Assembly (NCBI RefSeq): GCF_000143415.4
Contig: NW_003314513.1
Coordinates: 1-19,012 of the forward strand
DNA: 19,012 nt
DNA from: Selaginella moellendorffii
Lineage: Eukaryota; Plantae; Lycopodiophyta
Direction of reading: 5' to 3'
Part shown: positions 1-19,012 of the stretch, one piece after another
Position numbering within the stretch: position 1 is the stretch's first letter
Layout of the letters: the number at the start of each line of letters is the position of its first letter
The notes under the pieces: model-generated
The model's database searches: none
Seen by the model: only the letters and a program-made list of their open reading frames with translations
Told to the model about the DNA's origin: nothing
Made by a program: the position numbers and the translations under genes

Positions 1-437
1 AAGCAAAACCCTTTTAATTCAAAATGTAAGACAAACTTATTTAAACATCTTGATGCTCTCCTTCATCATGCTCAAGCTTTCAAAATGATGTATGAAATGG
101 AACAAGAAGAAATTTGTTTTGCTACACTTTCAGGTTACTCTATATATAGTGTTTACATGTTATTAAAAACTGAAGGAACTAATCCACGATGCTATAATGC
201 TTCATGGACAAATGATGTTGTTGTTGTGTTTGTTAGTGATGATGGAGAACTGCCACATAGTCATGAAATTTGTATATATCCAACTATAAGCAATTCTAAA
301 TGTATCTCAACACTTGATTATAATTGTGATCCAATAGTTCCCAAGTTGCACTTGTATATGCTTCTTGCAATGTTATACTTTTGGTAGGTCTTTAATCCCT
401 TACAAACATATGTATTTTATATATTTAATGATTTTTG

Positions 438-815
438 GGATGAATTCAAATGTTAAAATGTTAATATGAGGAGTTCATAATATTAAGAAAAAATTAGATA
501 TTAGTATTGTATTTGAATTTAAAAAAATTATTATAAAATATTAATTATAAGTTACACATAACATAACAAAGGGCATTTCTTAAAGTTACACTCAAATGGA
601 TTTTACAGTAATAATTAAATATTTAATAATAATAAATATTAAAACTTAAAATAATACTTTCTTCTGTAAATTAGGTTACAAGGCAAAACCTCTATTAATT
701 AGGAAATATTGCCACTCATATTTAAATATTATTTAAATTACTAGTTTGTTTAAAATACCTCCTTAATAAAAATATTGCCATAAGAAAATATTCTTTAGTG
801 TACCAGAATATTTTA
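438..815 (+). repeat. Diverged AT-rich dispersed repeat, copy 1 (related copies at ~4906-5294 and partial ~6710-6855)
   Basis: Collinear shared blocks: ggatgaattcaaatgttaaa vs ggatggatccaagtgttaaa; gatattagtattgtatttgaatttaaaa vs gatattgatattgcatttgaaattaaaa; gggcatttctt (571/5031); taaattagg...aaacctcta (667/5143/6827); aaaatattctttagtgta (~785/~5264). Confidence 0.7.
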
Positions 816-2121
816 AAATTTTATTCTTAATGACTCTTTTTGTTGACCTGGCTCTCTCTATTAGCAAATTGTACATCACCTAGTAAACTTTTAATGATTA
901 GTTTCTTTGAATTGATCAAGTGTGCCCAATATCTCTTTTTTTTTTGTTCAGGGGCTATGAGACACCAAAAGCAAATGTGCTTAAACTTTAAAAGAATGTG
1001 AAGGTGACATTTCCAATTTTGAAATTTTGTAAGAAAGAAAATTTACTCATTTTAAAATACTTTTAGCTATACAATTATGTAGCTAAATATGTTTACTAGC
1101 AAACCAAAATACCAAATAATATTTGTGTTACTAGTAATTAAAATAATAATACATAATATTTACCAGGAGGAGGAGGAACAAGGCTAGTGTTTTTCAAGTA
1201 AAGAAATTGGCAAAACCAACACAATATAAATCAAATTGGTATGATTTAGAACAACTTTGCAAGGAGTTCCTCTTGTACACATCAAGCAGCCCATCCTGTG
1301 GCTTCCACACACATCTCTTTTGAGGGTATGCTCCACAAATCCCTCAGCCTTAAACCTGGATATCAATCCCAAATATCCAAAGCTTTTCTTTTCACCATTC
1401 TAGTACTCATCGATGAGGTTTGGAAGGACTAGCAAGCTTTTGTAGCCAAGTAGCTGTATGTAAATGGTACGTACATACTCAAGGTCATGAAATCTCATTT
1501 TGGTGACATCCTATGAAGTGCGATACCAGCATCTCCAAATATGTTCGATTGTTGGATCGTTCCAGGCGTTTTGATGAATTTTACTCTAGACAAGCTGTGG
1601 ATTCATATCAATATGGAGCTATGTTGCACTGTGAGAATATTAAAACAGCAATGGATAGATATTTATCTTGTGTTCCTTTTTCCCATTTTTTTGCAAAAGG
1701 AAGTAGTTTGTGCATACTGATAGCTTATGTCTCCATGAGCTCCATGACTCGCATTCAATGAGTGCCAAATTTCCAGAGGTTTGAAAAGCGAGTAAAAAAG
1801 TTTCGTTCACTACATTAGAATTGAGCCTAAAAAGGAGTTACCATCAAATTAAAGTTGTTTTCACTTTTGGAAATATTTGTACCTAGAGCATTTCGTGATT
1901 GTGAGATTAAATCACTGTTCACATCTAGGTTTGGGCTCTTTAGCATGCTCAAGCCCGATGGCACCCTTGCTGACAATCCATAGTGTCACCAGCTCTCTGA
2001 GTCCACTCGTTTTTTTTTTCACAAAGCCAAAAGTACCTCTTTATTTTTTCTAAGTCAAGGGTTAGGTTATAATCTTTCTCGCTTGGATTTTTCTATTGTC
2101 AAAGCTCTCGTCAGGTAAGCT

Positions 2122-2694
2122 ATGGTCTCTCGTGCTCACGCCGCCCCAATGCTTGCCCGCCGAGCTCAAGCGCCCTGGCATGGCGGCCATCACCGAGCTT
2201 CACACCCGCAAGCTCCAGCTCTAGCTCCAGCACATCCAGCACACCACCATGGACACCAAGGCCACGAGCCAGCGCCAGCTTTAGCTCCAGTTCTTCAAGG
2301 TGACGCTCCAGATCGAGCCCCAGTGCCAGCTGCTTTCGTTCACCCTGCTCACGACCACCCTGCTCATCTAGCTCCAGCGCCTGCTATCCTCGATCATGCT
2401 CGCCACCACCATCCAGCTCCAGCAGCAGCAGTGTACCATCATCATCACGGTGATGGAGCTCCTCTGGTTGTTCACCACCATCACCATGGTCACCACCATG
2501 GAGGACGCCACAACCACCACCACCACCACCACCATCGTCGCGACGGTCACGACGCAGCAGTGGCCACACCAACACCCGCAGTAGTAGTTACAGTGGTTCG
2601 GAGGACGACGTGGTCGCTGCTCCAGCTGCTTCTCTGGGTTTTGGTTGCGATCTTGGTGCTGCTCGCGTGCTTTTTGCTCGTGCGATGGATGTGA
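2122..2694 (+). CDS. His/Ala/Pro-rich protein with C-terminal hydrophobic anchor (arabinogalactan-protein-like)
   Basis: 190-aa ORF with about 40 His, repeated APALAP/APAPA motifs and a terminal ~24-aa hydrophobic run (WSLLQLLLWVLVAILVLLACFLLV). It is a GC-rich island in AT-rich surroundings. The true N-terminus may lie in an upstream exon. Confidence 0.55.
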   Translation: MVSRAHAAPMLARRAQAPWHGGHHRASHPQAPALAPAHPAHHHGHQGHEPAPALAPVLQGDAPDRAPVPAAFVHPAHDHPAHLAPAPAILDHARHHHPAPAAAVYHHHHGDGAPLVVHHHHHGHHHGGRHNHHHHHHHRRDGHDAAVATPTPAVVVTVVRRTTWSLLQLLLWVLVAILVLLACFLLVRWM

Positions 2695-3099
2695 TCTCGA
2701 AGGAAGCAGCGCAGTAATGTGATCTTTCAGGATCCCGGGTGGCAGATCGAAGTTGTGGTGGACGATCCTCCGACTGAGAAGAAACAGCTGGAAGCTCACA
2801 CTCGTGGTTCGCACAGCAATGGCACTCTAGGATTCTCCTCAAAGTGTCCTGCAAACACTGGCAGTGACGCGTAACTCAGCACAGTGCATGCGTTGTCACA
2901 TGGAAGATTGTGTACAAACAATCTTCAAGGAGATGAAGTTGCAGAGCAAGAAGACAGCAGGCTCTTGCTCACGGACAGTGAAGATCACATAACCAGACTT
3001 GGAAGTTATTGCACAGCTGGCTCGGAACATGGACTGGAAAATAGAGCAAGAACCTACCAAGTTTCGATTTGACTGAGCTATCCTCTAGAGTGACGGGGG

Positions 3100-3900
3100 A
3101 GCAGACGTCAGTGCACCTCCAAAGGCCAGAGAAGTTGCTTGAGACGAAAGGTTTGAGAAAAGGTAACGTAGTACTTTTGCTCTCTGTTCTTGCAGGCGCT
3201 CAAAGCTCAACTTCGATGAGAAGACGCAGTGCAGGGCATAGCAGCCAGATAAGTTTCTCCAGAGTCAAGCCGGGAATCAAGCAAGTGCACTTGTGAAAGT
3301 ATGGTCGAAGTCTACACTGCGGCTTGCAACACAGGTTGTTCAACAGGATGGGACGAAGAACAGGATAGGTTGGTCTACCTCGCAAATTGTGAATACAAAG
3401 CCGATGCATTCGTCACAAGCAGCCTCGTGGACATGTGGAAGCATCAGAAGTGTTCAGGAGGACAAATAAACATGACGTTGGTTGCCTGGAACATGATCAT
3501 CATGGGACAGCACGTCTTCTATCAGATGAAACGAGAAGCTGGCCTGCCTCCAAACGCTGAGACTTTGCATGGAGTAGCAAAACATCGTTTCCTGGGCTAT
3601 GCTGAGAACAACCTTTGCTCTTGAGTGCTATGAGCAAGCCAGCAGCCAAACGCTCAGACTTTCATGGTGGTGCTCAAGGCACACAGCGACTTAGCAGAGA
3701 AGAGGCTCCACTCACAAATCTGGGAGAGAAATCTGGATGGAATCCACTACTCAGCATGCTTGCTCAATGAGAGAAAAGCTTATCTCGGGAGGTTGGTAAA
3801 CTTTGCAAGGAAAGAGTGTGATGCAAGGTTGATGGAGCTGTCCATAAAACCCAAACAAAGATGGCACCTGAAAAGACGCAAAAGGATCTTAAGTGGCACA
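3100..3900 (+). pseudogene. Decayed PLS-class pentatricopeptide repeat (PPR) gene
   Basis: PPR motif remnants in broken frames: GLRKGNVVLLLSVLAG, ADAFVTSSLVDMWKHQKC, LVAWNMIIMG, VFYQMKREAGLPPNAETLHGV, QPNAQTFMVVLKAHS, IHYSACLL. They are separated by stops, frameshifts and deletions. Confidence 0.75.
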
Positions 3901-3937
3901 CCATGGTGATATTATTCCATATCAATAGTAGAATAAA

Positions 3938-4440
3938 CAAGAATATACTAGAAAGTGTTTAGGAAAGAATATAATAATAAATTGCTACGCGTTGCATGTA
4001 GCAACGCTTGGTTTGCTTAATGGTAGTTTTATTATTACTTATTAATCTAATTGATCAAATAAAATTTATAATCATAAGCATGTTAGTAATTTATAAACAC
4101 AAGATTAATCTTATTGCATATCAACCATTAGATAATAGAATAAAAAAGAATATACTAGAAAGGGTTTAGGAAAGTTTATAAATTATAAACATGTTTATAA
4201 ATTATAAATACCAGATTAATCTAAATGAATACCAACCGTTAGATGGTAGAATATCCCAGAATATCCAAGCATATTCTAGGTATATTCACTACCATCCCAG
4301 TTCCCCTATAGGTTTGCTTAAGCAAACCAAAAAGATTAATCTAAATGAACAACAACTATTAGCTATTAAAATATCCTAGAATCTCCAAGCATATTTAAAT
4401 ATAGTCAATACTGCTACAGGTTTGCTTAAGCAAACCAATT
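3938..4440. repeat. Local duplications with a perfect 18-bp palindrome (probable non-autonomous element remnant)
   Basis: aagaatatactagaaagKgtttaggaaag at ~3939 and ~4146; agattaatct... at ~4102, 4213 and 4333; GGTTTGCTTAAGCAAACC at 4311-4328 and 4419-4436, ending two ~110-120 bp tandem units. Confidence 0.65.
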
Positions 4441-4905
4441 ATAGATTTATAGTGTTTGGTCACTTTAAATCTGTACAAGCCTATTCACGAATGTATTTAC
4501 ATAAGTATATAGAACTTTTTTCATTAGTGTATATGGGACTTAATTTTCTCCAAGATTTTATTGTAGATTAGATGTTATATTCTTCTTTCAACCATGCCCT
4601 GTACATATATACAAACTTTATAATTACAATTCAAGTTCTTTAAATCTTTTTTGATTTCATATTAGTAGACGAGAAACAACAAATATATGAGATTACAAAT
4701 ACTTGGTCAAAGGAAGCAAAGACAACATACTTAAAGGCATTATAATTAAAAGTAAAAGATCAAGGTAAAGCAGCAATACCATCATCACGAGTATATGATT
4801 CTCATTTATGGAAGTGACACTGTAAATAGAAAGCTTTACAACAAAGTTGCAATTACACATAATTCTTTAAATGTTAAAATTCTAGAGTATTTTATCCTTT
4901 GCATA

Positions 4906-5294
4906 GGATGGATCCAAGTGTTAAACTTTGGATTCATTATAACATCTGAATATGAGGTGAAAATAATAGATATTGATATTGCATTTGAAATTAAAATAAA
5001 TTTTATATAAATGACATTGAAAAAAATATAGGGCATTTCTTATAATTACACTAAAAATGTAATAAAAGCATATTATAGATATATATCGTTAATAATTAGT
5101 ATCAGTACTAATTATTAGATATAAAAATAATAATTGTTTCTCTAAATTAGGTGATAATGCAAAGCCTCTATCAAATAGAAACTATTGCCAATAAAGTTTA
5201 GATACTTAAATTACTATTTTAAAAATATCTGTTTAATAAAAATATTACAGCTAAAACCTCAATAAAATATTCTTTAGTGTATAAAAATATTTTT
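4906..5294 (+). repeat. Diverged AT-rich dispersed repeat, copy 2
   Basis: Collinear similarity to 438-815 (see copy 1). Confidence 0.7.
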
Positions 5295-7602
5295 GTGAAC
5301 TCCTTTATTTAAGTTCTCTTTATTATCAAATCCTTTTATATAGAGCATAATCCTTGATGGTAATAGTTATTTAAGAGAAATGCTATTTTAAGTTCTTTTT
5401 TGAACAATGTATATCATGTTGGAATAAAACTTTCAACACCACAAATGCTTTACAGTTTCATGAGTAATGAAGCATAAAATAATTGTGGAGGCATTAGAAT
5501 TATATGTAATGGTTCCAAAAATAAAATTTTAATTATCTGAAAGTGGAGTTGCCTTCTCTATCAAGAGTAGAGTTACATGAACATATAAAAAAATGCATTC
5601 GAGGTGAATACCATGATAAACACAATTGATTGTGCTAGAGTTTAAAAAGTACAAACACTTTAGAAAATTTAAACAAGTAATACAAGTTTATACATTTTAG
5701 TGGGTTGAAGGTAATGTTTATAGAGAATACAAGTTTAGAATTATAGACTCAGCTAACATGGTGGTTTAGCTGTTTTCTACATTTAAAGGCTTTAATTATT
5801 TCTCAGATAAAGAACTACCAGCATTGATTTCTTTATTAATTCTCTTTCTTTATTAAATGAGTTTTAAATTACTTGCTACCCACTATTGAAAACAATTTGC
5901 TCTAAATGCATATTTTAATATAAAACTTTCTTGGTCACCTCTATCTTACAATAGACCTTTATGCACTCTTATATAAAAGGCTAAGTTATAATAAAATACA
6001 TATAATTTTAAAGATTTGTTGGAATGTTTATTTACTATAACATTGACACAACCTCTTAGTCACAACCTCACAAAGTGATGGGATCAACTTTAAATGCTAT
6101 TGGAATTTAATTTAGAATGAAACCAATTAAGAACCTTAAAACTCTCAGACGAAAACAATAAGTAAGCCCAAGCAATTGAGAAATTTGTACCATCCCAAAC
6201 ATGAGTATGTAACTATAGAACATAGAGGACCAATACTTTTGAGCAATTAAAAGCTTAGCTACTTTTAAGTCAAAGAATAAAATATTCATAAGATTTAGTG
6301 AGCTATATGTCAACCTAGAGCAAGTTCTACAGTCAAATATTTTGTTTGGATTGGAGGAATATTATGTGGTAAGAAAATTATTATATGAACTTTACGCACC
6401 TAGCTGATTGTTTTTGTAGATGAAAACAATATGGCAATCCTCCAGAACAATGTGATCAATTCATATGGTTATGCCTTACGAAAGTTCTGCACACATGGTC
6501 AATTATTCAAAAACCAAAAGATATACCATATATTTAGTTATTTGGGTGAAATTGATGAATTTGGAGCTTTATGCTTTTGTTGAAACAAGCTTTAAATTTG
6601 AAATGAACACTTTACAACTATAATAACAATCTCACTTTTCTCAAGAAATTAATGTTCCTTAACATTAAAAATGCATGGTCAGAGGAATCAAAGACATTGG
6701 AAAAGAACTAGTTATTAGTATTGTAATTTAATTTGATATATTTAAAAATAAAAATTAATATATAAATTAGGATTTTATAGTAATAATTATATATTTAGTA
6801 ATACTAAATATAGTCAATTTATTATTTAAATTAGGTCAGAAATAGAAACCTCTAAAATTTTAGATTGTGAGTGTATGGAATATAGAAAGAGAATACAAAA
6901 AATATGCATCAGCCCAAAAAACTTAGTTTATATATAGGAACAAGTGGTCTGGATTGAAACTAATCTGATGGCTACTAAAATCCCACTACACTAATATTAA
7001 TATACAGCATCATAGCCGTACACTTGGACTTAGACCTCACATCATCCCTCCTCTCGGAATAATGGAAGACCATTAGGGTTCTTTTGTAGATGGGCTGGGA
7101 TCTAGAGGAATGTCAGGAGGAGGCATTGGCAGATCTGTAGGTGGTATTAATTGTTTCTGATCTTTTTATATGAAAGCTCTATTTCGTTAAAGTGGGAATT
7201 GTCATTATCCCACTTGTAAAATAAGGTTTCCAAACCTTTATATAGTATATAAATATAACAAAATTCAACTGCATTGAGGCACATGCCATTTTATTTTAAA
7301 CAAGGAAATGTCTACTCAATCACTTCTCCTCCCCCTGCCACTGCTTCACCTCTCTCTTCTCCTTGTCATCGTCGTCCAATTTCTTTCCATCCTTTTAATA
7401 TTGGCTCAGTTGCTCCGAGTCTAGGTGGAGCCCAAGTCCCCATTCAATCTTTACTTTCCCCTTATTAATAAAACAACTTCGTAGACTTCCAATAACATGC
7501 TGTAAATGCAAATCCTCTCAAAGAATTGTCTTTTAATATTAATACAATGGCATGGAACCCCATGCCATAATAAGTTACATTTTTAAATAAATACATGCCA
7601 TC

Positions 7603-8465
7603 TCAGACTGTTATTTTTTGCCTCCAACGCCTATACAATAATCTTGGAATTTCATCACTCTCCACACTATCAGGATTTAAACCCAATAGTAATGCCATCT
7701 CTTCTCTAATACGTCCACGCTCATGTTCAGTGGTCGAAGAACCCATCCGGTTGAGCAGATTATGGAGATGCGGATAGTGCTTGGCTAGACAATATACATG
7801 CCATAAATGATGACTGGTGTCTGTCCGATCAAATGGCTTCTGATATACCGTTCCATCTGCCACTTGGTTGATTTCTGCAGCCACCTCCTGGACTGGCCGG
7901 TTCTCTATCACCATCGCTTCAAGCCGTTTTGCAAGGTCCCCCAAAACATACGGTTTCTTCTCCCTAGTTTCCATACTGCAAGAGATGGGGTGCACTGCAT
8001 ATGTGTGCGTGTTCGCTGCAGTTTTAATCGGCGAGTCATCGATGATGAAGATTTCACTTGACCTAGCAGTCCGGTTCATCACTACAGCCTCTGGCTTGAT
8101 GAAGATGGGCTTGCTACCCCTCACATGGACCATAGTCAAGCAATCCTCCTGCGTTAGGAGAAAGTCAAATGGTAATATTACTCGCATCTGATCGTGCATC
8201 ATCTGTAGCAATGTTAATGCATTGTGGCGCATCATGGATGTCCAAACTCCCAATTGCAAATTGAACCCAGCCCTCTGTTTTAAGTGTCACATGGTCATTA
8301 TTAGATCCCGTAGTTTCTCCTGTGTGATTAATGTGAATCTGTCTCTTTTGACCAACTTGCGACCGCAGGCTTTGGAGGGTGCAGTGACATTCGAGGACGA
8401 GCCACGCTCATGGGAGAAAAGGACACCGTTCAGATAAAAAATGATACAGTACTTTCGCCGTGACT
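7603..8465 (-). pseudogene. Terminal exon encoding an FCP1/SCP/NIF-like HAD phosphatase domain, catalytically degenerate and interrupted by a stop
   Basis: KYCIIFYLNGVL (compare KLLVLDLNGLL motif I; Asp to Tyr), LGVWTSMMRHNA, FLLTQEDC...KPIFIK, IFIIDDSPIKTAAN...VHP. ORFs 8287..8487 and 7603..8259 are in the same frame, split by one TGA. Confidence 0.7.
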
Positions 8466-11400
8466 CTGAAATGAAATGCGTCAGCATAAAAAATGGTACA
8501 AGTCAATTTTACCATCTACAATATTAGCGAATGGTGCTCCCGATGGTCGTTCAGAGGGTTTTGGTCGAGGAAACGTGAAGGGCGGAAATACTCTCCTCTG
8601 CAATGTGGGGTCAATCGCATCCGATGGCGTGTGGGCACATGCCATTTCAGCTGTAGACTCTGGTACAACTGGCTCAACAGTGGCATGGGGTGGTTCCGAT
8701 GGCGTGTGATCACACGCCATTTCAGCTGGTGCCTCCGTTGGCAAAGTGGACATGACCGAACAGGCAGCAGGGGCGGTGTAGGGAGGTTCCAACGGCGCGT
8801 AGTCAGACGATTGGGCACACGTTGGAAATGAGGATACAACCGGCTCGGCGGCTGGGGCGGCCTCATGCGGGTCCAATGGCGCCTGGTCACCGTCAGTTGG
8901 ATACGTGGACAAGATTGACTCAATGGTATGGGCAGCATCAAGTGGAGCGTGGTCAGCTTGCTTGGCGTTGATATGGATAGTAGCCTCCACCAGCTCTGAT
9001 GACTCTTGCAGGCAAGTAGAGTCCACTGGCGGATCCATATGCATGTCCAAATATCTCCCTTCGATTGAGATGGTATCCTCCCGTGCTACTAAAAACAAAC
9101 TCATTAGCACATTGAATCGACTATACTGTATTTACCATCAACTGCTATTGAGGAACTAGGACCGATATCACTTGGGCACACTGCTGATTCTGAAGGATTG
9201 GACATACGTTTCGACCCTTGCTTGGCACTATCCTTCCTCGACACTAAAGGCTAGAGTTTGTATCTTAATTCAACTGAATAATCTCTACTTACCATTTCTT
9301 CTGCGACCTACATGGACAATGTTAGAAATGGTAAAAGGTTAGGAATGGATGTACTATTATTTACCTGATGGTTTGTCTTGTATGACCTTCCTCCGCTGCT
9401 CTTTGGCCACCTCAGGCTGGCCATCGTCGTCATCATCGTCATCGTCGTTATTGTGATCGTCACCATTGTGAGGACCATCCAAGTCCTCTTCGTCCTCCTC
9501 TTCTTCATCCTCCTCTTCTTCGTCCTCCTCTTCTTTGTCCTCCTCTTCGTCCTTCTGCTCTTCCTGCTCATTATCTTTCTCTGGCTCTTCATCCCCCTCT
9601 TGCATTTCTTCCATAGGCTGCTCAGGCTGGATGGCTTGTTTTTCCAGGACCATCTTGGGAAAATCATCTGGCCGAGTCTCCATCTCAAAATACAAGACAT
9701 CCATAGCCTGTTTTAGTGCGTGACCTAGGACCGTATCCTCACCCGACTGTCTTAACATAGTTTCTGCACGTTCTTGCACCCTTCGAAGACGACGAGATGA
9801 GAAAAACGTGGCCCTGACTTGAAAAGCATCCCTCATCCATTGTACCTCTCCATTGAGATTGGGGAAGGGGAGTCCGCCATAGGAATCTGAGTCAGAAGGT
9901 GGTGACTGGCTCCTTTCACTCAGCCCTTGATCTGCAATGAATGGCATGAGCACACACGCCATAACCGCGAGGCATTACCTATCATCTTTTCGTTGCCCTT
10001 CTTCCTTTTCGAATCAAACGCCTCTGATCCCGACGACTGTCGAACGTGCTTTCGCTTTTTATGACCACTGTCAGTTTGAGCTTGGCTGGTGCTTGCCTGT
10101 TTTGCCTTTGAAGAAGTGTCTCCTGCAAGGAATGGCATGAGACCACACGCCATTGCAAATATAATTTGTACCTCCTTTTTTCCTATTGCTTGTCTGTTTG
10201 TCCTTCTTCGACGCGCCACCAGTGCGCTCAGTCCTCGTGTCTGAATATTCACAACGATCTATAATCAAAATGGCGTGAGGCCTCATGTGACCTTACCTTG
10301 TGCAGGTTGTGACCTCGGCCTAACATCAGTAGCTGTTAACGCCGTTTCAGCATCTGGGGGTGGCCACGCTCCTGCATACAGAGCTTGTGAGATAACATTT
10401 AAACTTAAAGTGCGTACTCACCAGGTTCGTAGAGAAGATACTGTTTTTCTTTGGCAACTGTAATTATATGCTCCATTGAAGTCACCTCTTCAATGGAGTT
10501 TGTCACCGCAACACACGGGACACCCTTGAGTAGTGCGGCTCGAAAGAATAGTCCGCCGCAGTTGTACTCGACAACGCATTTGCCCTTGGAGTCACCCGCT
10601 ATTGCGTTGAAGACCCAACTGAGCATTTCCCATGCTGCACCTGGAGCTTTCTTTGGATTCGAAAGCTCCATAGCCGTCTTCAGTTCCTCAGGCACGGGTA
10701 AATTGACCTCCCTCAGATCAATTCGATCGGCTTTGTTGAACGAAGCTGGGAAGTCACTCCAGTCCCACTCTGCTGCAGGACCAATAACAAGGGCGACTGT
10801 GAAGATGCGGACATTCGTCGGTATCTTCTTCTTAGCCATTATCCCATGGATCTCCCGCATCTCCTTGCCTTTCAACCGAGCCTTCACCTCGTTCAAGGCC
10901 TTCCAGAACTTGTGATAGGATTCGGAGTCGTAGATCATATAGTGGACTGAAGATTCCACCTCCGCAAGTCCCACCATTAAGTCAATGATGGAGCTGACTT
11001 CGTCTGCATGAGTGATCTCCTCGTTTGTGAAGTCCATCACACAAAAGATGTTCTTGACCTTCTCATCTCCGCGGGAAACGATGCTCCTCCACCTTTGATC
11101 CTCATCCGAATTCACGTATACCCGATAAGGTTCTCGATAGGCCTCTGCTGCGGGGTCGAGCTGTTTCTGAAGCCGGCGGTCGACATCCCTCTTAATGAAA
11201 TTTGGATACTGATCCAACTTCTCAGCTTTACTTTTCGTGGCATCCCGCAGCAGATCGATGAACTTGGGGGCCCCCTTCACGTACTCGTCGATGTCTTCAT
11301 TTGACAAGTCCAGCTCTTCCATCATCTCTTGCGTGGTGTCGATGCTCACCCTCGCCACGGCCACTTGCTCGAAGATCCAATCCTTCAATAGCGCACGAGC

Positions 11401-12984
11401 TCTCAGAGTCGTGCACAAGTCCTCGTATGTCACAATATGGCCGGGAGTCATTTTGGTCTTGTTGAAGACTACCTCACCACGTAGAAGAGCATTAGCCACT
11501 GTCAGAAGGTCGTCGTCGTCTAGAGACAGCGAGAAACGCAAGGCGTTGAGCTTCAAATCATTGGGCTTCCGGCCGTCCTCCACACCCATTGAGTTTAGCA
11601 ACTCCCCGTCATGGTACCTCCTCAGCACATCTACCCATTTGTCAAAAACAACTTTTGTCGCGAGTAGAATGTTATGGATGCTGAGTGTGTCATTGACCCC
11701 CAGTGTTTTCGAGAGAAGACTCGAGAATTCCTGCAATGGAAATGGCGTGAGGCCACATGCTATGCCACATGCAACGAGGCTTACCTGCCAGGCGCTAGTT
11801 GCTAGTGCACGTCCTTGTCCTGGTTTTTGTGGCTTCTTCAGTTGAACCCAGAGCTTCCGTGTTCGTGCCAATGTCTTGTGCAGACCCGATTTGTAGCACG
11901 TTTCTTGCTTGACATTCTGCGCGTGGGAGATGTATATGATAGATCGGAGGGGCGAGTTGCCTTTTATCAGGCGGACAACTCTTGTCTTGAAGACTTTCTT
12001 CACCTCCTCGCCCACCATAATATCCACAACTATCTGTTGCATCGCCAAGCTAGAATGCTGCCCGGAGACGGCATAGAACCGGATGTTCTGATCGTCCAAC
12101 ACCTTCCTATTGATCAAGTCTGGAAACCTTGTCTCGCCCTTCATTGTTCGGTAGTAGGGGATCACGTCTGCGATGTCGGGTGTTACTGGACTTGCCAGCA
12201 TCTTCTGCTTCAGTTTCTCCACCCACTCATCAGATACTAGCCTGTGGTTGTATTTGCTTTGGATCTCGATACGGCTCACGTCGATTGTATATACTTTGTT
12301 GGAATAGTAATAAGTACTATTATCTGTGACGATTTTTGCTGCCTCTTCTTGCTCTTTCTGCTCTTTGCGGCTCTTCTTTTTGGTGGGTGTAATGTTCGAA
12401 CCCGAGGCAATGGCATCACCGAGTAGCTTCTTTTTTGGAGCAGCAGAGTCGGACGTCGGCTTGAGCTTGACCACCCTTTTCTGCTTCGGGGTAGTTTCCA
12501 GATCGACCCCCTTCCCCTTCGCTTCGCAAACTGGAGGCACTCTCAACGGCTCAATGTTGGAATATAGTTTTTGAACATCGCCGTAGGTGAGGTCCGTGGA
12601 TTCCATGTGATCTTCATAGACCCGCAGCGTCTTTGAAATTGTGGGCCTCCTGGACAACCTCTCCCTAGCTCCCTCTAGGAATTCCTCATAGCCGCTGCCC
12701 CCCTCCGGGAAGCCACTAGGATGTGCAAGGTGGATCTTGAAGGCGGACGTTGTCTCTACCACAAGTGCCAGTCCATATTCTTGCATGGAACTGCATGGAG
12801 TGTCTGTCACTTGGATGAGGATCCCCATGCATTCTTTTCTCCCACCATCTGTGTTGTACAGCATCAGATCCTCGCCTTCCATCCCGAAAGTCCAACTGGT
12901 GAGCTCCTCCCCCTTCTCTGCATCCACATTGACAGTGGCTGGAAGAAGAACGCAATTCCTTGCTTGTTCAGAAATGCACAACAA
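7603..12984 (-). CDS. Multi-exon transposon accessory gene (~1,600 aa): ParB/Srx-like + degenerate N6/N4-MTase-like + basic/acidic linker + FCP1/NIF-like; one in-frame stop in the last exon
   Basis: Hand-spliced exons on the - strand: (12882 ATG or upstream)-11785, 11730-10422, 10371-10297, 10240-10172, 10122-9979, 9931-9365, 9307-9293, 9243-9136, 9088-8513, 8465-7603. All nine introns are GT-AG and 47-57 bp, and splicing keeps the frame, joining six separate ORF-track entries. The 5' end is uncertain. There is a TGA at 8289-8287. Confidence 0.7.
10422..12984 (-). CDS. Large exons encoding a ParB/Srx-like domain (~11900-12300) and an N6/N4 DNA-methyltransferase-like remnant (~10460-11120)
   Basis: 859-aa ORF that includes an in-frame 54-bp intron (11731-11784). 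ParB-like: IDVSRIEI...NHRLVSDEWVEKLKQKM...FYAVSGQHSSLAM. MTase-like: KKAPGAAWEMLSWVFNAIAGDSKGKCVVEYNCGGLFFRAALLKGVPCVAV, resembling KP..L..LI...S..GD.VLDPF.GSG.T..AA...GR..IG. Domain calls are by eye. Confidence 0.65.
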
Positions 12985-13414
12985 TTAGAGCTGACAGATG
13001 AAAAGCTAGCAGCTGGAAATAACGTGAGGCCACACGCCATTCACCACTGCATCAGATGTCTTGAGGCTGCATCCTAAGATGGCGTGAGGCTACACGCCAT
13101 CTGTAACCGGACTGCACTCGAGAGCCCAATCGGTGCATGCCAATGTTGCTACTGAATGGCATGTGGCCTCATGCCATTTTCTACTTCGTCTAAAAGACTT
13201 ACCATTTGAAGCCGAATGGAGGCCGTGACAATCGAGGCCGGACTCGCTGGCGAATGTGCACTGTGTGTGCAGCGGATCATAGCAGCAAGGCTACTCTGCC
13301 ACTTACAGTTGGAGAGTGGTGCTGAAATCTCCCGGGACGCCAAGTGGGCTGCGTGTGGGTGGCGGAGTGGGCGGCGGAGTTGGCGGCGAAGTTACAAACT
13401 GGGTGTGTCTTGAA

Positions 13415-13590
13415 GTGGACGCCGATGCACACGAGCGCGATGCGAGCGCGAGTGTGATGCAAGCGCGAGTGGACGCCGATGCACACGAGAAACCTGTAGA
13501 GAAGTGAGCGTGATCGCGAGTGGGAGCGCGATGCGAGCGGGAGCGCGAGTGTGATGCGAGCACGAGCGCAAGTGTGTGAGCGCGAGTACA
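13415..13590. repeat. GCGAG/CGCGA-rich low-complexity repeat upstream of the - strand gene
   Basis: gtggacgccgatgcacacgag occurs twice (~13415 and ~13469), among many gcgag(c/t) units. Confidence 0.8.
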
Positions 13591-13618
13591 AAGCAAAATG
13601 CAAAACCTAACCTCACAC

Positions 13619-13785
13619 GCGCGAAATGTCACAACGGTTGGTAATCCCGCCACGTCATCATTCCTCGGACTTGGGCGCCACCATTAATTTCTGGATTGCC
13701 GCGCACATGCAAGCACGCAAAATCCAAAAGAAATCCGCAACGTCATCATTCCTCGGACTGCATGCATGCGAAATCCAAAAGAAAG
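13619..13785. promoter_or_regulatory. Putative promoter region of the - strand gene with duplicated ACGTCA elements and E2F-like sites
   Basis: 20-bp direct repeat acgtcatcattcctcggact at 13652 and 13740; GCGCGAAA (TTTCGCGC on -) at 13619-13626; ATTGCCGC near 13695; CAACGG at 13632. These are motif matches only. Confidence 0.3.
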
Positions 13786-13904
13786 ATCATGATTGGGATA
13801 TCATTTAATACCCTCGCTATATTTATACCATGCATGATTGGATATTCCAAAGCATCTTGTATTTCCAAAAATGGCAGATGTTCAGCTAAATAAAGAAATT
13901 CTAT

Positions 13905-15300
13905 CTGTTTCTATTTTTCTCTCAAATCAATATTATAGCGTGTGGGCTCATGCAATTTTGAACCAAAGAAACCCAAAAAACGTTGGACCCAAAATATTTT
14001 GAAAAAACCCAAAAAACCCTAAACATTTTAAACCCAAAAATCCAGGCGTCCTGTGGCATTATTCCTTGAATGGCGTGTGGGCGCATGCCATTTTCAGGGC
14101 CAAATGCTGAATAGAGAAAAATTCCCTTTTAGTGCAAATGCTGCAAGAGGCAGATGCCGAGCACAAAGGACTGTAATTACCTCACATGACACAGATAAAC
14201 TTTTCTCTATTTGGCAAAGATAAACTTTATAGCGTGTGGGCTCATGCAATTTTGAACCCAAAAAATGCACCAAAAAATTCTCGGCGTCATCTGGCGTTAT
14301 CTCTTGAATGGCGTGGGGCCGCATGCCATTTTCAGGGGCACATAGGAGTATATTCCTAGGATATTCTGACACGCGCGAGATTTTTTTGAGTTTTCTGGAG
14401 ATCCAACCGTTAGATCGCAACTAAATTTTACAGAATGGTATACAATGTCTTTCTTGATGACCCTGCAAAGAAGCATCTCGATCGGACACCACATGAGACC
14501 ACACGAGCCTTACAATGTTTCAGGGGCATTTGCCATAGATCCGACCGTTATTTTGCTCCAAGATTTTACAGTTTGGTGTGCATTGACCTTTCCATCGAAA
14601 CTGCAAAGGGACATCACAATCAGATGCGGGATCACAAGAAACTACCTTCACTAACTCTGGTTTCACCAAGATCTACGTAAGGAGTTATGAAATGAAAGGA
14701 CCCTCTCTATTGAAATGTGTTTATGGTCCTAGGGGCATTGTGACATATCAAAGGATTTTGCATCAAGTTCTGTATTTGCATGTTTATCAAGCTACTGAAT
14801 TGCTAAACCCTAAACCCTAAACCCTAAACATGTGGCAAATGCTGCGTGAAGAAAGATGCCCTTTCTGGGCAAATGCTGTAAAAGGCAGATGCCGAGCAGA
14901 TGTATCTCAGGCTAGCGAAGGGGACAAACGAAAGCTAGCTATAAACATGACGGGATGCAAATAGATTACTAGGCTGGTCCTACGAAAATCAAAAACCATA
15001 ATTGAAAACATTGAAAATGCAAAAAGAAAGGTTTATAATATTTTTGAATTTTAAGCAACCAAAGGAATGTAAGTAGGGCATGTGTTTGTAAGTTTAAAAA
15101 TGCCTCAACCACTTAAATTCCCAAGTAAATAAAGCTGTTTCTATTTTTGGTACAGGTAAACTTTATAGCGTGTGGGCTCATGCAATTTTGAACCCAAAAA
15201 TGCACCAAAAAATGCTCGACTAGCATTATTCTTTGAATGGCGTGTGGCCTTATGTCGAGCATTATTCTTTGAATGGCGTGTGGCCTTATATTGCCATAAA
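13905..15300 (+). repeat. Three direct copies of a ~130-190 bp intergenic module, each carrying a pair of palindromes
   Basis: ctattt...ttatagcgtgtgggctcatgcaattttgaacc(c)aaa...tgaatggcgtg at ~13908-14100, ~14203-14340 and ~15137-15260. There is also a 36-bp tandem duplication at ~15222-15290, and gcaaatgctg...aggcagatgccgagca at ~14134 and ~14869. Confidence 0.85.
14803..14829. repeat. Short interstitial plant telomere repeat / telo-box (CCCTAAA)n
   Basis: ctaaaccctaaaccctaaaccctaaac; a single aaaccctaaa also occurs near 14015. Confidence 0.9.
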
Positions 15301-15723
15301 TGGACGTACACACACAGCATAATTATTCCTTTACACGGCGAATAATCTTGGCGCGGATCGCTGACATGGCATGGCAAAGTTCGAATCACTGACATGGCAC
15401 AGCTGGATCGAGGCAAGGACATGATGTGACAAAGTTCAACCTCCGACAACAAAGTCTAGAAGCTACTCAGTTTGAAATTTGTCAGAGGAATCATAAGATC
15501 TGGTTTGTCAGAGGATTTGATGTGACGTTCAAGCGTGTGTTATTTTTGAATTCTCGAACTCATTCCTAGGTCTATCATTTTTGTGCGCCGTGTTCTTGGT
15601 TCCACTGAGCGCAGTGAGCGCTGCTTGTGTAAGCGGCGTTGTGGGCTGTGGTTTATGCGTCTACGAGCGGTTGCGGCATTGCGAGTGCCATTGCGAGCGG
15701 CAGTTTATGCGAGTGGCAGTTTG

Positions 15724-15793
15724 TGCGAGCGGCGCTACGAGCAGTTGCGGTGTTGCGAGCGGCGCTACGAGTAGTTGCGGTGTTGCGAGCGGC
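15724..15793 (+). repeat. 30-bp tandem repeat (~2.3 copies) in a GCGAG-rich tract upstream of the transposase
   Basis: tgcgagcggcgctacgagYagttgcggtgt x2 followed by tgcgagcggc; related units from ~15660. Confidence 0.85.
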
Positions 15794-16159
15794 ACTGTCT
15801 TTGGTGTGGCTACCGCTTCCTCTTGATATTCGGCACTTGTGCTTCCTGGTATGTTCACCATGGAATGGCTTAGGACCACATTTAGAAATGGCATGAGGCC
15901 ACATGCCATCTTGGGCCCTTGCAATTTCATGGCTAGCGTATTGTCATGTATGTTTTTACTTGCCTGCAGCTGTGTGTATATCAAGATGGCATGAGGCCTC
16001 ATGCCAATTTTGTGAATGCGAAATTTCACGTGGGTGTCAATAGCATGTTTGAATAATGGCATGTGGCCTCATGTTATTGAGGTTGTTTGGTATGTTATGA
16101 TTTAGGCCATTCTCCAATCATTTTTTGTATGGTCTTAACTTCTTTTCTGCACTTTCAGA

Positions 16160-19012
16160 ATGGCCTTCAGGGTTGGGGAAAAGGTTTACATTTTGAATGG
16201 TGGGAAGAGAGTTGCAAAAGGGACCCTTGTGTCTATGGATCGGAACTTTGTTATACACTGTCAAAAGCTTGGGGAAGGCAATGCTGCTGTATCAGTAGAG
16301 ACTGTCTTCGATGGGAATGTGGTCGCTATTGAACGAGGAGAGATGGTCGTCGGGGTAAATGTTGTTGTTGCCTTGAAAAATCTTCAGAAGAAAGCAGATG
16401 TTGGGGACAGCGCAAGTGCGACGCATGTTCCCTCCGTGGATCTTAAGAACCGTGCTACATGGATTCAGGCAAAGGTGTTTCTAAACAACCCCGAGGGGGA
16501 GGTGGTAGCTGAGGGCTTAGCCACAGTTGTCGATCCAAGAGATGCGGTTACTAATCAAGAATTGGGCTGGGATGATATTGGAGTTGTGATTTTAGAGGTT
16601 GTTGACACAGAAGAAAACAGTCTGACTATTGGAAGCATTGTGCGGTGGAAATTGAGGCACTTAGTGTTTGAGAATGTGAAGGATTCACAATCAAACACCA
16701 CTACAACTGATGACAGAACATCTCTTCATGGGAAAAGAAAGTACACCTTCCTAAAGCGCAGCCAAAGGGATCTGAGCAACGAACCGAAAAGGCAGAAAAT
16801 GGCGATGGAGGTTCGAATGGTCTCGACAGTTGCTTGTTGCAAGAGGAGGTGCTGTCAACATGCTAATTGGGATGCTATTGAAGAGGAGAGAGCAAGATAC
16901 AAGACATTGTCCTGGAAGGCAGCTCGCAATTTTGTGTATGAGGCATTACGGTCATCTGTTGATGCTTCAGAACATCAAGTGGGGGGCATGGTCTTCCAAA
17001 GGGGTTTGGTCTGCATGAAGGTATGGAGAATCATTTATGGAGTCCCTCGAACCACATTCTACAGAATCAAAACTGAGTTCGAGGAACAAAGGGTTCAACA
17101 GGCAGTCCATGGGAACGACGGTACGCACAAAACCAGGGGTCATGTTGTATATGGAGAGGCAATCTTCAAGAGGTTTGTCGAGACATGTAGCGAGCAGCAA
17201 CCACATAAAACCCGCCTCTTGGAAGATGGAACACGAGACACCCAACGAGTTCTCCCTTCCATGTATACCAAGGGGGCCATATTGGAAGATGTGAATCGGG
17301 AACTCCAGAGTAATGGCTACAGGAAGCTGAGCCAATCTAGATTTAGTAGATTGTGGAGCAACAGGTTCAGGGATGTGAGTATAGGAAAGTACTCCAGCTT
17401 TTCAAAGTGTGATGAGTGCACTGCTATCAAAATGGCTTTGTCGAAGAATTCTTGCAACGCTCAAGAGCGAGAGACGTTGGTTAGAAGGCGGCTCGATCAC
17501 AACATCGAGCAGAGAAGCTGCAGGACTGCATATTATCATAACAGGATTCTCTCCATGGAGAGACCTGACTCTTACCTCTGCATCATCCACGACAAAATGG
17601 ACCAGAAAAAGACGTGCTTACCTCGACTCAATCCTGCCCCCAAGGCAATCTCTTCATCCATGCAGCTGCCTGTGTCTCTGTTTGGCATAATCGCTCATGG
17701 GCATGGTGCCCAGAACTATGGGAACTTCTTTGTACCTCTATGGGGTGGCGGGGGTGCAAACATGATGATTGCGTCCCTAGCAAAACACTTAAGGTCTCTG
17801 CAAAGTGCGCAGACTGAGCTGAACGGCCAACCCTTGCATAAGGCCCTTGTCGATCGAACCCCATACAGGGTTCAGCTGGAGGAGGAGCAAAGGCTTGCAG
17901 TATCGCGTGGGGCCCCATGCCATCCCAGTGAATATGTTGGCCGTCAGATTGTAGGGTTATCACGTGAGGCCTCATGCCATTCCGACGAGGCTGGTCGCCC
18001 GGTGAATGCACAGCCTCATCCAAACGAAGCAGAATCTCAAGGAAGTTCTTGCGGCCGATGTGGCCTTCCACCCCATCTTCTGCTCCAAACAGACAATGCT
18101 GGCAGTGAGAACAAAAACATGTACGTCTTCGCGTACTTGGCGATGCTTGTTGCCAAAGGCATATTTGAAACGGTTACACTTGGCTTTCTCATGGTTGGGC
18201 ACACTCATGAAGACGTCGATGCCATGTTCAGTCACCTGGTAGAGTCCCTCCGGCGATCCAATGTCCTCACCCTCCCACAACTCTACGATGAATTCCAAAA
18301 TTGCATCAAAGGCACTGTTGAAGCTGCACTTCTGACAGAGGTTCCAGACTTTAAGGGGTTTGTAAGAGGCTACATCAGGGACGGATCCGAAACGCTGATT
18401 GGCCACTCCAAGCCTCTTCAGTTTCATTTCAGCATGTGTGACGGTGCTCCAGTGATGAGGTACAAGATGAGAGAATGGGACACAGTGTGGCTGCCAGTGG
18501 ACGGCATTGAACTCTTCAAGAGAGATCCCATAACTGGGGAACCTATGATTCCTGAGGGTTCCCCACGGCCGATGCACCCGGATGGACTCAAAGACCAGGA
18601 AAGTATAGTGGCCGGGATTAGACAGCATATTGCCTTCTGGAAGAGGGGGTTGGTGTTTGGTGGAGAATCCTATTTTCAGAGGTGCAAGCCTTTGCTCGAA
18701 TACTGGGAGAAGATTATATCTGCTATCCAAAATGGGCCGGTTGTATATGAAGAATTGGAAGAGTCCTTTTGGCCAGAACCCAGAGCACCAGATAGTAGCG
18801 GAACAATGTCCTCTGGAAATGCAGTGACAGATAACGATGTTGAGGATCACTATTGTGGGCCGAGGAACAAGAAGCCGGATTCAGCATTCAATCCAGTACA
18901 GGTCTGCAAAGGAATGGTCATGCTTGTCAGACCCAGTAATAAAAAACAAATGATATGGGTGGGGCGCTGCATCACTGATGCAGAGGAGGACGCGGAAACT
19001 AACTCCTTCAAT
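16160..19012 (+). CDS. Sola-like DDD transposase (DUF7869-type core), 3'-truncated by the window end
   Basis: ATG at 16160 follows a tttcag acceptor, and the frame is open for 951 codons to the window end. Motifs: CCKRRCC; VCMKVWRIIYGVPRTTFYRI; HGN; FSKCDEC (~17400); IIHDKMDQ (D at 17591); LLLQTDNAGSENKN (D at 18092); FLMVGHTHEDVDAMFS (D at 18218). Confidence 0.88.
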   Translation, partial: MAFRVGEKVYILNGGKRVAKGTLVSMDRNFVIHCQKLGEGNAAVSVETVFDGNVVAIERGEMVVGVNVVVALKNLQKKADVGDSASATHVPSVDLKNRATWIQAKVFLNNPEGEVVAEGLATVVDPRDAVTNQELGWDDIGVVILEVVDTEENSLTIGSIVRWKLRHLVFENVKDSQSNTTTTDDRTSLHGKRKYTFLKRSQRDLSNEPKRQKMAMEVRMVSTVACCKRRCCQHANWDAIEEERARYKTLSWKAARNFVYEALRSSVDASEHQVGGMVFQRGLVCMKVWRIIYGVPRTTFYRIKTEFEEQRVQQAVHGNDGTHKTRGHVVYGEAIFKRFVETCSEQQPHKTRLLEDGTRDTQRVLPSMYTKGAILEDVNRELQSNGYRKLSQSRFSRLWSNRFRDVSIGKYSSFSKCDECTAIKMALSKNSCNAQERETLVRRRLDHNIEQRSCRTAYYHNRILSMERPDSYLCIIHDKMDQKKTCLPRLNPAPKAISSSMQLPVSLFGIIAHGHGAQNYGNFFVPLWGGGGANMMIASLAKHLRSLQSAQTELNGQPLHKALVDRTPYRVQLEEEQRLAVSRGAPCHPSEYVGRQIVGLSREASCHSDEAGRPVNAQPHPNEAESQGSSCGRCGLPPHLLLQTDNAGSENKNMYVFAYLAMLVAKGIFETVTLGFLMVGHTHEDVDAMFSHLVESLRRSNVLTLPQLYDEFQNCIKGTVEAALLTEVPDFKGFVRGYIRDGSETLIGHSKPLQFHFSMCDGAPVMRYKMREWDTVWLPVDGIELFKRDPITGEPMIPEGSPRPMHPDGLKDQESIVAGIRQHIAFWKRGLVFGGESYFQRCKPLLEYWEKIISAIQNGPVVYEELEESFWPEPRAPDSSGTMSSGNAVTDNDVEDHYCGPRNKKPDSAFNPVQVCKGMVMLVRPSNKKQMIWVGRCITDAEEDAETNSFN

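Follow-up and report, generated by a model that had tools for sequence, protein, structure and literature searches.

Twenty-two copies of a 22-bp palindrome in a two-gene DNA transposon of Selaginella moellendorffii are candidate binding sites for an element-encoded protein with a predicted ParB fold

We analyzed a 19,012-nt stretch of the lycophyte Selaginella moellendorffii (contig NW_003314513.1, positions 1 to 19,012), here called the window, to which all coordinates refer. A repeated DNA transposon with two divergent genes occupies the right ~12 kb of the window (7174 to 19012), and it carries 22 copies of a palindrome that are likely element-confined double-stranded DNA sites kept by selection. 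The element is marked by a step in the summed contig depth of X1, from ~6 to 8 thousand left of 6870 to ~750 thousand from 7300 (step across 6868 to 7301; summed contig depth is not copy number), and by an X6 contig that begins to fit at 7174. Its left end lies somewhere in ~6970 to 7260, and it continues past the right window edge, with its right end beyond the window. One gene, on the forward strand and cut by the window edge (16160 to 19012), encodes a DDE-type transposase (DUF7869, E value = 1.7 × 10−41) with 27 homologues, one of them named from Riccia sorocarpa, and its motifs HDKMD and QTDN flank a length-variable insertion. The other, gene A (7603 to 12882, reverse strand), is predicted to have 10 coding exons and a product of 1,607 amino acids (aa), with nine GT-AG introns of 47 to 57 nt giving one frame. 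The predicted order of its parts is a ParB-like N-terminal domain, a helical domain, a Rossmann-like region, an acidic tract, a Pro/Ala repeat and an FCP1/NIF-like domain.

The consensus of the palindrome, ATGGCRTG-WGGCCW-CAYGCCAT, spans 22 bp and has an informative center. The original prediction, made from the letters of the window, had described 22 copies in a fixed geometry of 8-nt arms around a 6-nt spacer. Number and geometry both held: at spacer 6, 10 sites matched the pattern ATGGCRTG-N6-CAYGCCAT perfectly, 3 with one mismatch and 6 with two, while the 15 other spacers in the range 0 to 15 gave no site with 0 or 1 mismatch and at most 2 with two mismatches. A symmetric position weight matrix (PWM; threshold, ≥12 bits) found 22 sites in 7101 to 19012 and 0 in 1 to 7100 (200 dinucleotide shuffles, mean = 0.04 sites), so that the sites are confined to the element; the 19 seed sites had leave-one-out scores of 25 to 36 bits. 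The PWM set takes in a degenerate copy at 7268 and leaves out a half-site at 15273 (5.5 bits). The spacer, which had been read as free, is conserved as WGGCCW (1.47 bits each at positions 10 and 13), and the site is therefore 22 bp long. A 22-bp mobile unit was considered and rejected, as no target-site duplication stands beside the sites.

The leftmost site is the degenerate copy near the left end of the element (7268 to 7289, 13.3 bits, found with the PWM), which lies outside the range given originally, followed by a copy 3′ of the gene A stop (7547 to 7568, found with pattern and PWM). Two coding copies at 8624 and 8699 (8624 to 8720) form a 75-nt duplication in a Pro/Ala/Glu repeat, and a decayed unit of this repeat palindrome stands at 8876. 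Four copies lie in tiny introns of gene A, and three more (13019, 13079 and 13156) in its probable leader intron, predicted from the sequence (12939 to 13202, reverse strand). Between the genes (13935 to 15294) are six sites belonging to two duplication families (13935, 14070, 14229, 14308, 15165 and 15237) together with the half-site at 15273; site 15237 is created by a 36-nt tandem duplication (15222 to 15293) that the X6 and X13 contigs skip. The probable leader intron of the transposase, likewise predicted (15850 to 16158, forward strand), holds sites 15888, 15986 and 16056, and the last two coding copies, 17902 and 17959 (17902 to 17980), lie in the variable insertion between HDKMD and QTDN. 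The original assignments to the two probable leader introns, to the Pro/Ala/Glu repeat and to the transposase insertion are thus borne out.

Next, we looked into where the sites sit relative to chance. Coding DNA makes up 65% of the element and holds 4 of the 22 sites (P value = 1 × 10−5). Introns are enriched, as had been anticipated: four sites lie wholly within tiny introns, compared with 0.5 expected (P value = 0.0014), and 10 of the 18 noncoding sites are intronic, compared with 25% of the noncoding DNA (P value = 0.005). The robust placement result is depletion from coding DNA. The earlier claim that the palindromes occur only outside folded domains stood in part. None of the 22 sites falls in folded segments (8.7 expected; equaled by 84 of 11,839 circular shifts), segments that make up 39% of the element and were drawn from the model and alignments after the sites were seen, but a hydrophobicity-based partition put one site (17902) in the ordered class. 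Among the coding copies alone, avoidance of folded parts was weak (P value = 0.024 for four copies and 0.15 as two pairs). Moreover, domain avoidance alone does not show selection on the site, because purifying selection on the protein would produce it for any insertion or duplication. We infer that copies persist wherever 22 bp are tolerated, that is, in spacers, leader introns, tiny introns and disordered linkers.

The four site-bearing tiny introns, all on the reverse strand, measure 47 nt (9932 to 9978, site 9941 to 9962), 49 nt (10123 to 10171, site 10132 to 10153), 56 nt (10241 to 10296, degenerate site 10270 to 10291) and 54 nt (11731 to 11784, in frame, site 11742 to 11763). They have GT-AG ends and are 39 to 47% filled by the site, in agreement with the "nearly half" of the original prediction, whereas the link it drew to introns does not extend to the five other tiny introns of gene A, which carry no site. 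In the 47-, 49- and 54-nt introns, the site ends 9 to 11 nt before the 3′ AG and a CTCAY adenine stands at −16, −16 and −18, respectively, the predicted branch position; in the 56-nt intron this adenine is at −36. A CTNAY adenine stands at −15 to −17 in four of the five introns without a site. Judging from this register, the site likely doubles as the branch point in three tiny introns and would therefore fit into 47 to 54 nt at no extra length. Introner-like elements are near-identical copies of whole introns, with a unit confined to introns. Such an intron-generating element does not fit here, as the flanks of the four intronic sites fall in separate clusters and 18 of the 22 sites lie outside tiny introns.

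We judged the relatedness of the copies from ungapped 25-nt flanks, which grouped the 22 copies into 17 clusters. Eight copies share flanks within three duplication families, contrary to the original description of all flanks as unrelated; the flanks of 14 are unrelated, with pairwise identity at background right beyond the 22 bp. In four duplicated pairs, which were picked for having a site, the arms were more conserved than the homologous flanks (63/64 versus 153/215 identical positions, P value = 3 × 10−7), the excess over flanks that had been foreseen. C5 and T7 do not vary among the 44 half-sites; at position 6, 25 have A and 19 have G, the CpG being seen as CG or CA and never as TG. The arms pair at positions 6 and 17 in 9 of 22 sites, compared with ~9.4 expected if they were independent. 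A protein reading duplex DNA fits better than an RNA hairpin, because the arms do not covary. Of the listed variants (40 of 267), none fell in a site (1.6 expected), a comparison that has no statistical power. These results point to selection on a DNA site, as originally concluded: the conclusion is supported by arm conservation, invariant C5 and T7, the one-sided CpG change, the absence of covariation and lineage-specific palindromes that are placed alike in distant relatives, although the grounds first given for it, placement and flanks, are not what supports it.

The relatives were collected through the transposase alignment, which yielded 80 related loci (63 nonredundant) with flanks of ≤10 kb; the loci are decayed, and their transposases are ~30% identical to that of the window. 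The window PWM found no strong site in the 80 loci (best score, 13.5 bits). A PWM trained on locus L006 (ATYTRG-TGGCCA-CYARAT) identified sites in 45 of 62 held-out loci, 183 in all, compared with 4.0 under a Markov null, and none of the 183 lay within the transposase hidden Markov model intervals (31 expected), which cover conserved coding parts only; some sit between transposase segments (L063 and L024). In a de novo search, 27 of 63 loci had clusters of ≥3 palindromes (at most 2 under the null), although those of L036, L050, L058 and L075 may be unrelated repeats. Locus L001 has its own word, ATTTGGCCATATGGCCAAAT, at 5 sites, and L010 (10 sites) and L048 (3 sites) have another, CACGGGTG..CACCCGTG; in the transposase tree (72 rows, those with <80 core residues excluded), L001 and L010 are on separate branches. 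At least three other transposase lineages thus have a palindrome of their own, different in each. Of 24 related loci tested, 3 have terminal inverted repeats of 24 to 33 bp, which start (AT)ATAACAC and not CACTA, and all 39 L006 sites lie inside those of L006. In locus L040, the same divergent pair of ParB-like gene and transposase occurs, and sites lie upstream of the former. FCP1-like traces occur in L006, L008, L009, L036 and L058.

Some further observations concern these loci. Single palindromes 3′ of the transposase are common to L001 (5167) and L002 (4026), with the word ATGGTGTTTATAAACACCAC, and to L004 (3866 and 5510) and L020 (12967), with the word CAATATTGGGTACCAAA. Between the FCP1-like pieces and the transposase of L006 (5918 to 7105) lie palindrome arrays with periods of 24 bp and 50 bp. 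A dyad signal at spacer 16 in L006 was discarded, being really a tandem array of a shorter palindrome.

The product of gene A is the candidate reader of the sites. Its ParB/sulfiredoxin-fold domain (11815 to 12354, reverse strand, as are all its domains) is predicted, and it is followed by a helical domain, placed where ParB proteins have a helix-turn-helix, that is a candidate DNA-binding part (11155 to 11730; predicted local distance difference test [pLDDT] score mostly 73 to 95). In an AlphaFold2 model of the region built with 15 homologues (pLDDT = 68), the top 10 Foldseek rows were all Noc/ParB (best E value = 5.6 × 10−3). Comparisons with VIA gave Z = 10.8 with 7bm8 (root mean square deviation [rmsd] = 2.3 over 98 residues), Z = 8.6 to 11.2 with ParB, Noc and KorB chains, and Z = 9.8 with PadC over 48,161 chains. 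Alignments over model residues 30 to 328 reach the C-terminal part of truncated ParB/Noc/KorB chains at an rmsd of 5 to 12 and cover only the first half of the helical domain (to residue 328). The N-terminal half of gene A is thus predicted by the model to fold like ParB/Noc/KorB. By sequence, PHROGs gave only a weak ParB match (E value = 0.11), PDB searches gave no real match, a word-indexed homologue search gave nothing, and a profile search gave only two proteins, both already in the set. A homodimer prediction for the ParB and helical regions, made without an alignment, scored 0.01, and a single-sequence fold (pLDDT = 32) was of no use.

The Box II arginine motif of ParB proteins serves nucleotide binding. 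In its place gene A has SGQHS, and in 12 of 12 aligned sequences an invariant GQH precedes S or T. ParB clamps need the Box II arginine for nucleotide binding (PMC12704722), and a KorB-type CTP sliding clamp appears less likely because this residue is missing from the sequence. In the Rossmann-like region (10435 to 11124), possibly a degenerate beta-class N4C/N6A methyltransferase, DFTN and VVEYNCGG stand at the places of DPPY and motif I. The pLDDT is <60 in much of this region and its fold matches reach Z ≤6. Pfam gave no methyltransferase match in gene A at an E value of 10, and the methyltransferase label of the original prediction was not confirmed by either kind of search. No methyltransferase came near the top of the fold searches, which neither supports nor excludes the label. 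The FCP1/NIF-like HAD domain (7900 to 8465) matches NIF below the cut-off here (E value = 0.035) and strongly in homologue P0042 (E value = 5.8 × 10−17). Its motif reads DLNGV in other copies (variant at 8436), and its activity is uncertain because the second Asp is replaced.

Concerning the gene model, keeping any of eight introns unspliced leads to an earlier stop. The ninth (54 nt) is in frame, and homologues have a gap or a short linker where its 18 encoded residues lie. Eight of the nine tiny introns fall inside, or border on, the low-complexity middle of gene A (8513 to 10421); they are in phase 1, so that exon skipping would keep the frame. X20 contigs, RNA by guess, are unspliced over the predicted introns and were used neither for nor against splicing. 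This copy of gene A has one premature stop (aa 1380), and 4 of 4 runs compared have another base at 8289. Most differences from other copies across 7863 to 17413 are A>G or T>C changes; the window copy has therefore likely gathered methylation-type transitions, the gene A stop included.

As for the superfamily (CACTA/EnSpm or Sola), the transposase N terminus matches Transposase_23 (TNP1/EN/SPM-like) weakly and below the cut-off, the family search that gave DUF7869 gave no Mutator match, and the termini were not located in the window. Candidate left termini are a CACTA pentamer at 6984 and ATATAACA at 7253, and a hairpin with 8-bp arms lies at 7190 to 7215. Just left of the element, one 14.5-bit match to the 18-bp palindrome of the other clade (6963 to 6980) is perhaps the remnant of a related element. 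Between the genes is a telomere-type CTAAACC repeat (14803 to 14829, 3.9 copies), and such words recur in several related loci. The left flank contains at 3360 to 3800 a putative broken pentatricopeptide repeat-like remnant.

We propose that the sites are read by a protein of the element itself. That they bind a putative element-encoded protein is highly probable, and the product of gene A is probably that protein. A dimer of the gene A protein would bind the palindromes through its ParB/Noc/KorB-like N-terminal half and would load at sites along the whole element, bringing with it its C-terminal parts, namely, the possible degenerate methyltransferase, the acidic tract and the FCP1-like domain. 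The element would thereby be kept transcribed or otherwise regulated, as VANC does for VANDAL, and copies of the site would spread by short duplications. We assign a probability of about 0.6 to this explanation as a whole, that is, binding by a gene A dimer for self-regulation or antisilencing. Several points weigh against it, besides the choice of the duplicated pairs for having a site and the coverage of the transposase intervals, both mentioned above. Decayed copies exist (8876, 13056 and 15273). The loci with L006-type sites amount to roughly one clade, and the 183 sites are not independent. The closer relatives L002, L003, L004 and L020 have no palindrome cluster. A ParB-like trace was found in 1 of the 80 related loci (L040), so that co-occurrence of sites and gene A is not established. 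The transposase is an equally co-inherited candidate reader. Furthermore, Foldseek gave no match at an E value of 0.001 or better, and the Box II arginine is missing.

The transposase, or its TnpA-like part, might instead bind the sites for transpososome assembly or self-activation, as Spm/TnpA and AtMu1 do. It is present at every locus with sites (by construction), the site word changes with the transposase lineage, and its N-terminal TNP1/EN/SPM matches, though below the Pfam cut-off, recur (E values of 0.0034 here and 0.00066 in P0003). Transposases can also act as sequence-specific activators (10.64898/2026.08.24.746577). However, the same source describes TnpA as binding a nonpalindromic motif at the termini, whereas the sites here are dispersed over introns as far as 10 kb from the left end, and we consider this reading unlikely. 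A host transcription factor or chromatin protein recruited by captured enhancers is more improbable still. The window element shares its 8-bp center, GWGGCCWC, with the large clade (chance, ~1 in 128), which would suit a conserved host reader that depends on it, but the sites are long (18 to 22 bp), lineage specific and absent from 7.1 kb of flank.

Two explanations dispense with a reader of DNA, and we give each slightly less credence again. Passive internal duplication of one unit, with placement due to purifying selection on the proteins, would account for the 8 copies in duplication families, for the L006 arrays and for the weak avoidance of folded parts within coding DNA. It is already largely refuted, given the 14 copies with unrelated flanks, the drop in identity right outside the site and the arms that outlast their homologous flanks. 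An RNA hairpin, splicing element or introner-like unit creating tiny introns would explain the fixed register before the 3′ AG in three of four introns and the CTCAY at −16 to −18. It fits poorly with arms that do not covary and, in some copies, have A-C mismatches on the sense strand, with the many sites outside tiny introns and tiny introns outside the site set (18 of 22 and 5 of 9, respectively), and with the lack of an Rfam match in 7000 to 19012.

The closest parallels come from algae. The Ectocarpus giant DNA transposon Sola1-1_Ec32 is described as having an opposite-strand gene with a ParB-like domain plus a predicted N4C/N6A methyltransferase, and the authors suggest that this accessory protein binds its own element and modifies it (PMC12477816, citing Iyer et al. 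2011). The window element likewise has a second gene opposite a DDE transposase, with an N-terminal ParB-like domain. In contrast, no palindromes are reported in the main text of that paper; the element described here comes from a land plant, and its gene A has an unconfirmed methyltransferase followed by an acidic tract and an FCP1-like domain. PAG3 of red-algal Plavaka (EnSpm) has an N-terminal ParB-like domain plus a 2OG-oxygenase, and Plavaka inverted repeats, with tandem arrays adjoining the gene, are proposed as its binding sites (10.1101/2025.02.11.637652). A ParB-like accessory gene and inverted-repeat units within the element (22 sites here) are thus shared, whereas ours are single sites scattered through a DUF7869 transposon, in its introns, its linkers and its spacers. 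ParB accessory genes, once together with inverted repeats, are already known from algal transposons, and the present element is a land-plant variant. In the literature outside subscription journals, Repbase entries and algal-paper supplements, we found no land-plant element with ParB, an FCP1-like domain and dispersed palindromes.

Among plant elements, binding and demethylation are reported as shown for VANDAL21/VANC21 of Arabidopsis (PMC5735166). As here, a family-specific motif is enriched in intronic, intergenic and terminal noncoding DNA, is gained by duplication and differs between families; unlike here, it is a 9-nt nonpalindrome in same-orientation arrays of a Mutator-like element, and the sites of the window are known from sequence. 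Spm TnpA is similarly an element-encoded reader of clustered family-specific motifs, but these are described as terminal and nonpalindromic, and the reader derives from the transposase (10.64898/2026.08.24.746577). KorB/OB of plasmid RK2, ParB/parS and Noc/NBS share with our proposal a mobile-element ParB-fold protein and palindromic operators that also lie far from promoters (PMC11790492; 7bm8, 7nfu and 8qa8). They differ in being bacterial CTP clamps, which bind a palindrome as dimers and slide, with the Box II arginine, which is absent here, and no ParA-like partner was seen in the window.

More tentatively, and with considerable doubt, the element may represent a land-plant transposon superfamily with a bacterial-type ParB/parS-like self-recognition pair, in which a lineage-specific 18- to 22-bp palindrome would evolve together with its ParB-fold reader. 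Its sites would be housed in introns, as branch points, and in disordered linkers, and an FCP1-like phosphatase and a methyltransferase-like domain would be spread along the element to escape silencing. According to the proposal of the two algal papers, untested there, an accessory protein of ParB type binds and modifies the transposon that encodes it; one of the papers calls VANDAL the sole proven case. With its defined 22-bp site, its candidate reader and relatives whose sites differ by lineage, the window element makes cross-binding directly testable. Should our proposal hold, palindromes dispersed in plant chromatin would be recognized by a ParB-fold protein. Plant transposons would then have a second means of self-regulation, and the protein and its site might form an orthogonal protein-DNA pair.

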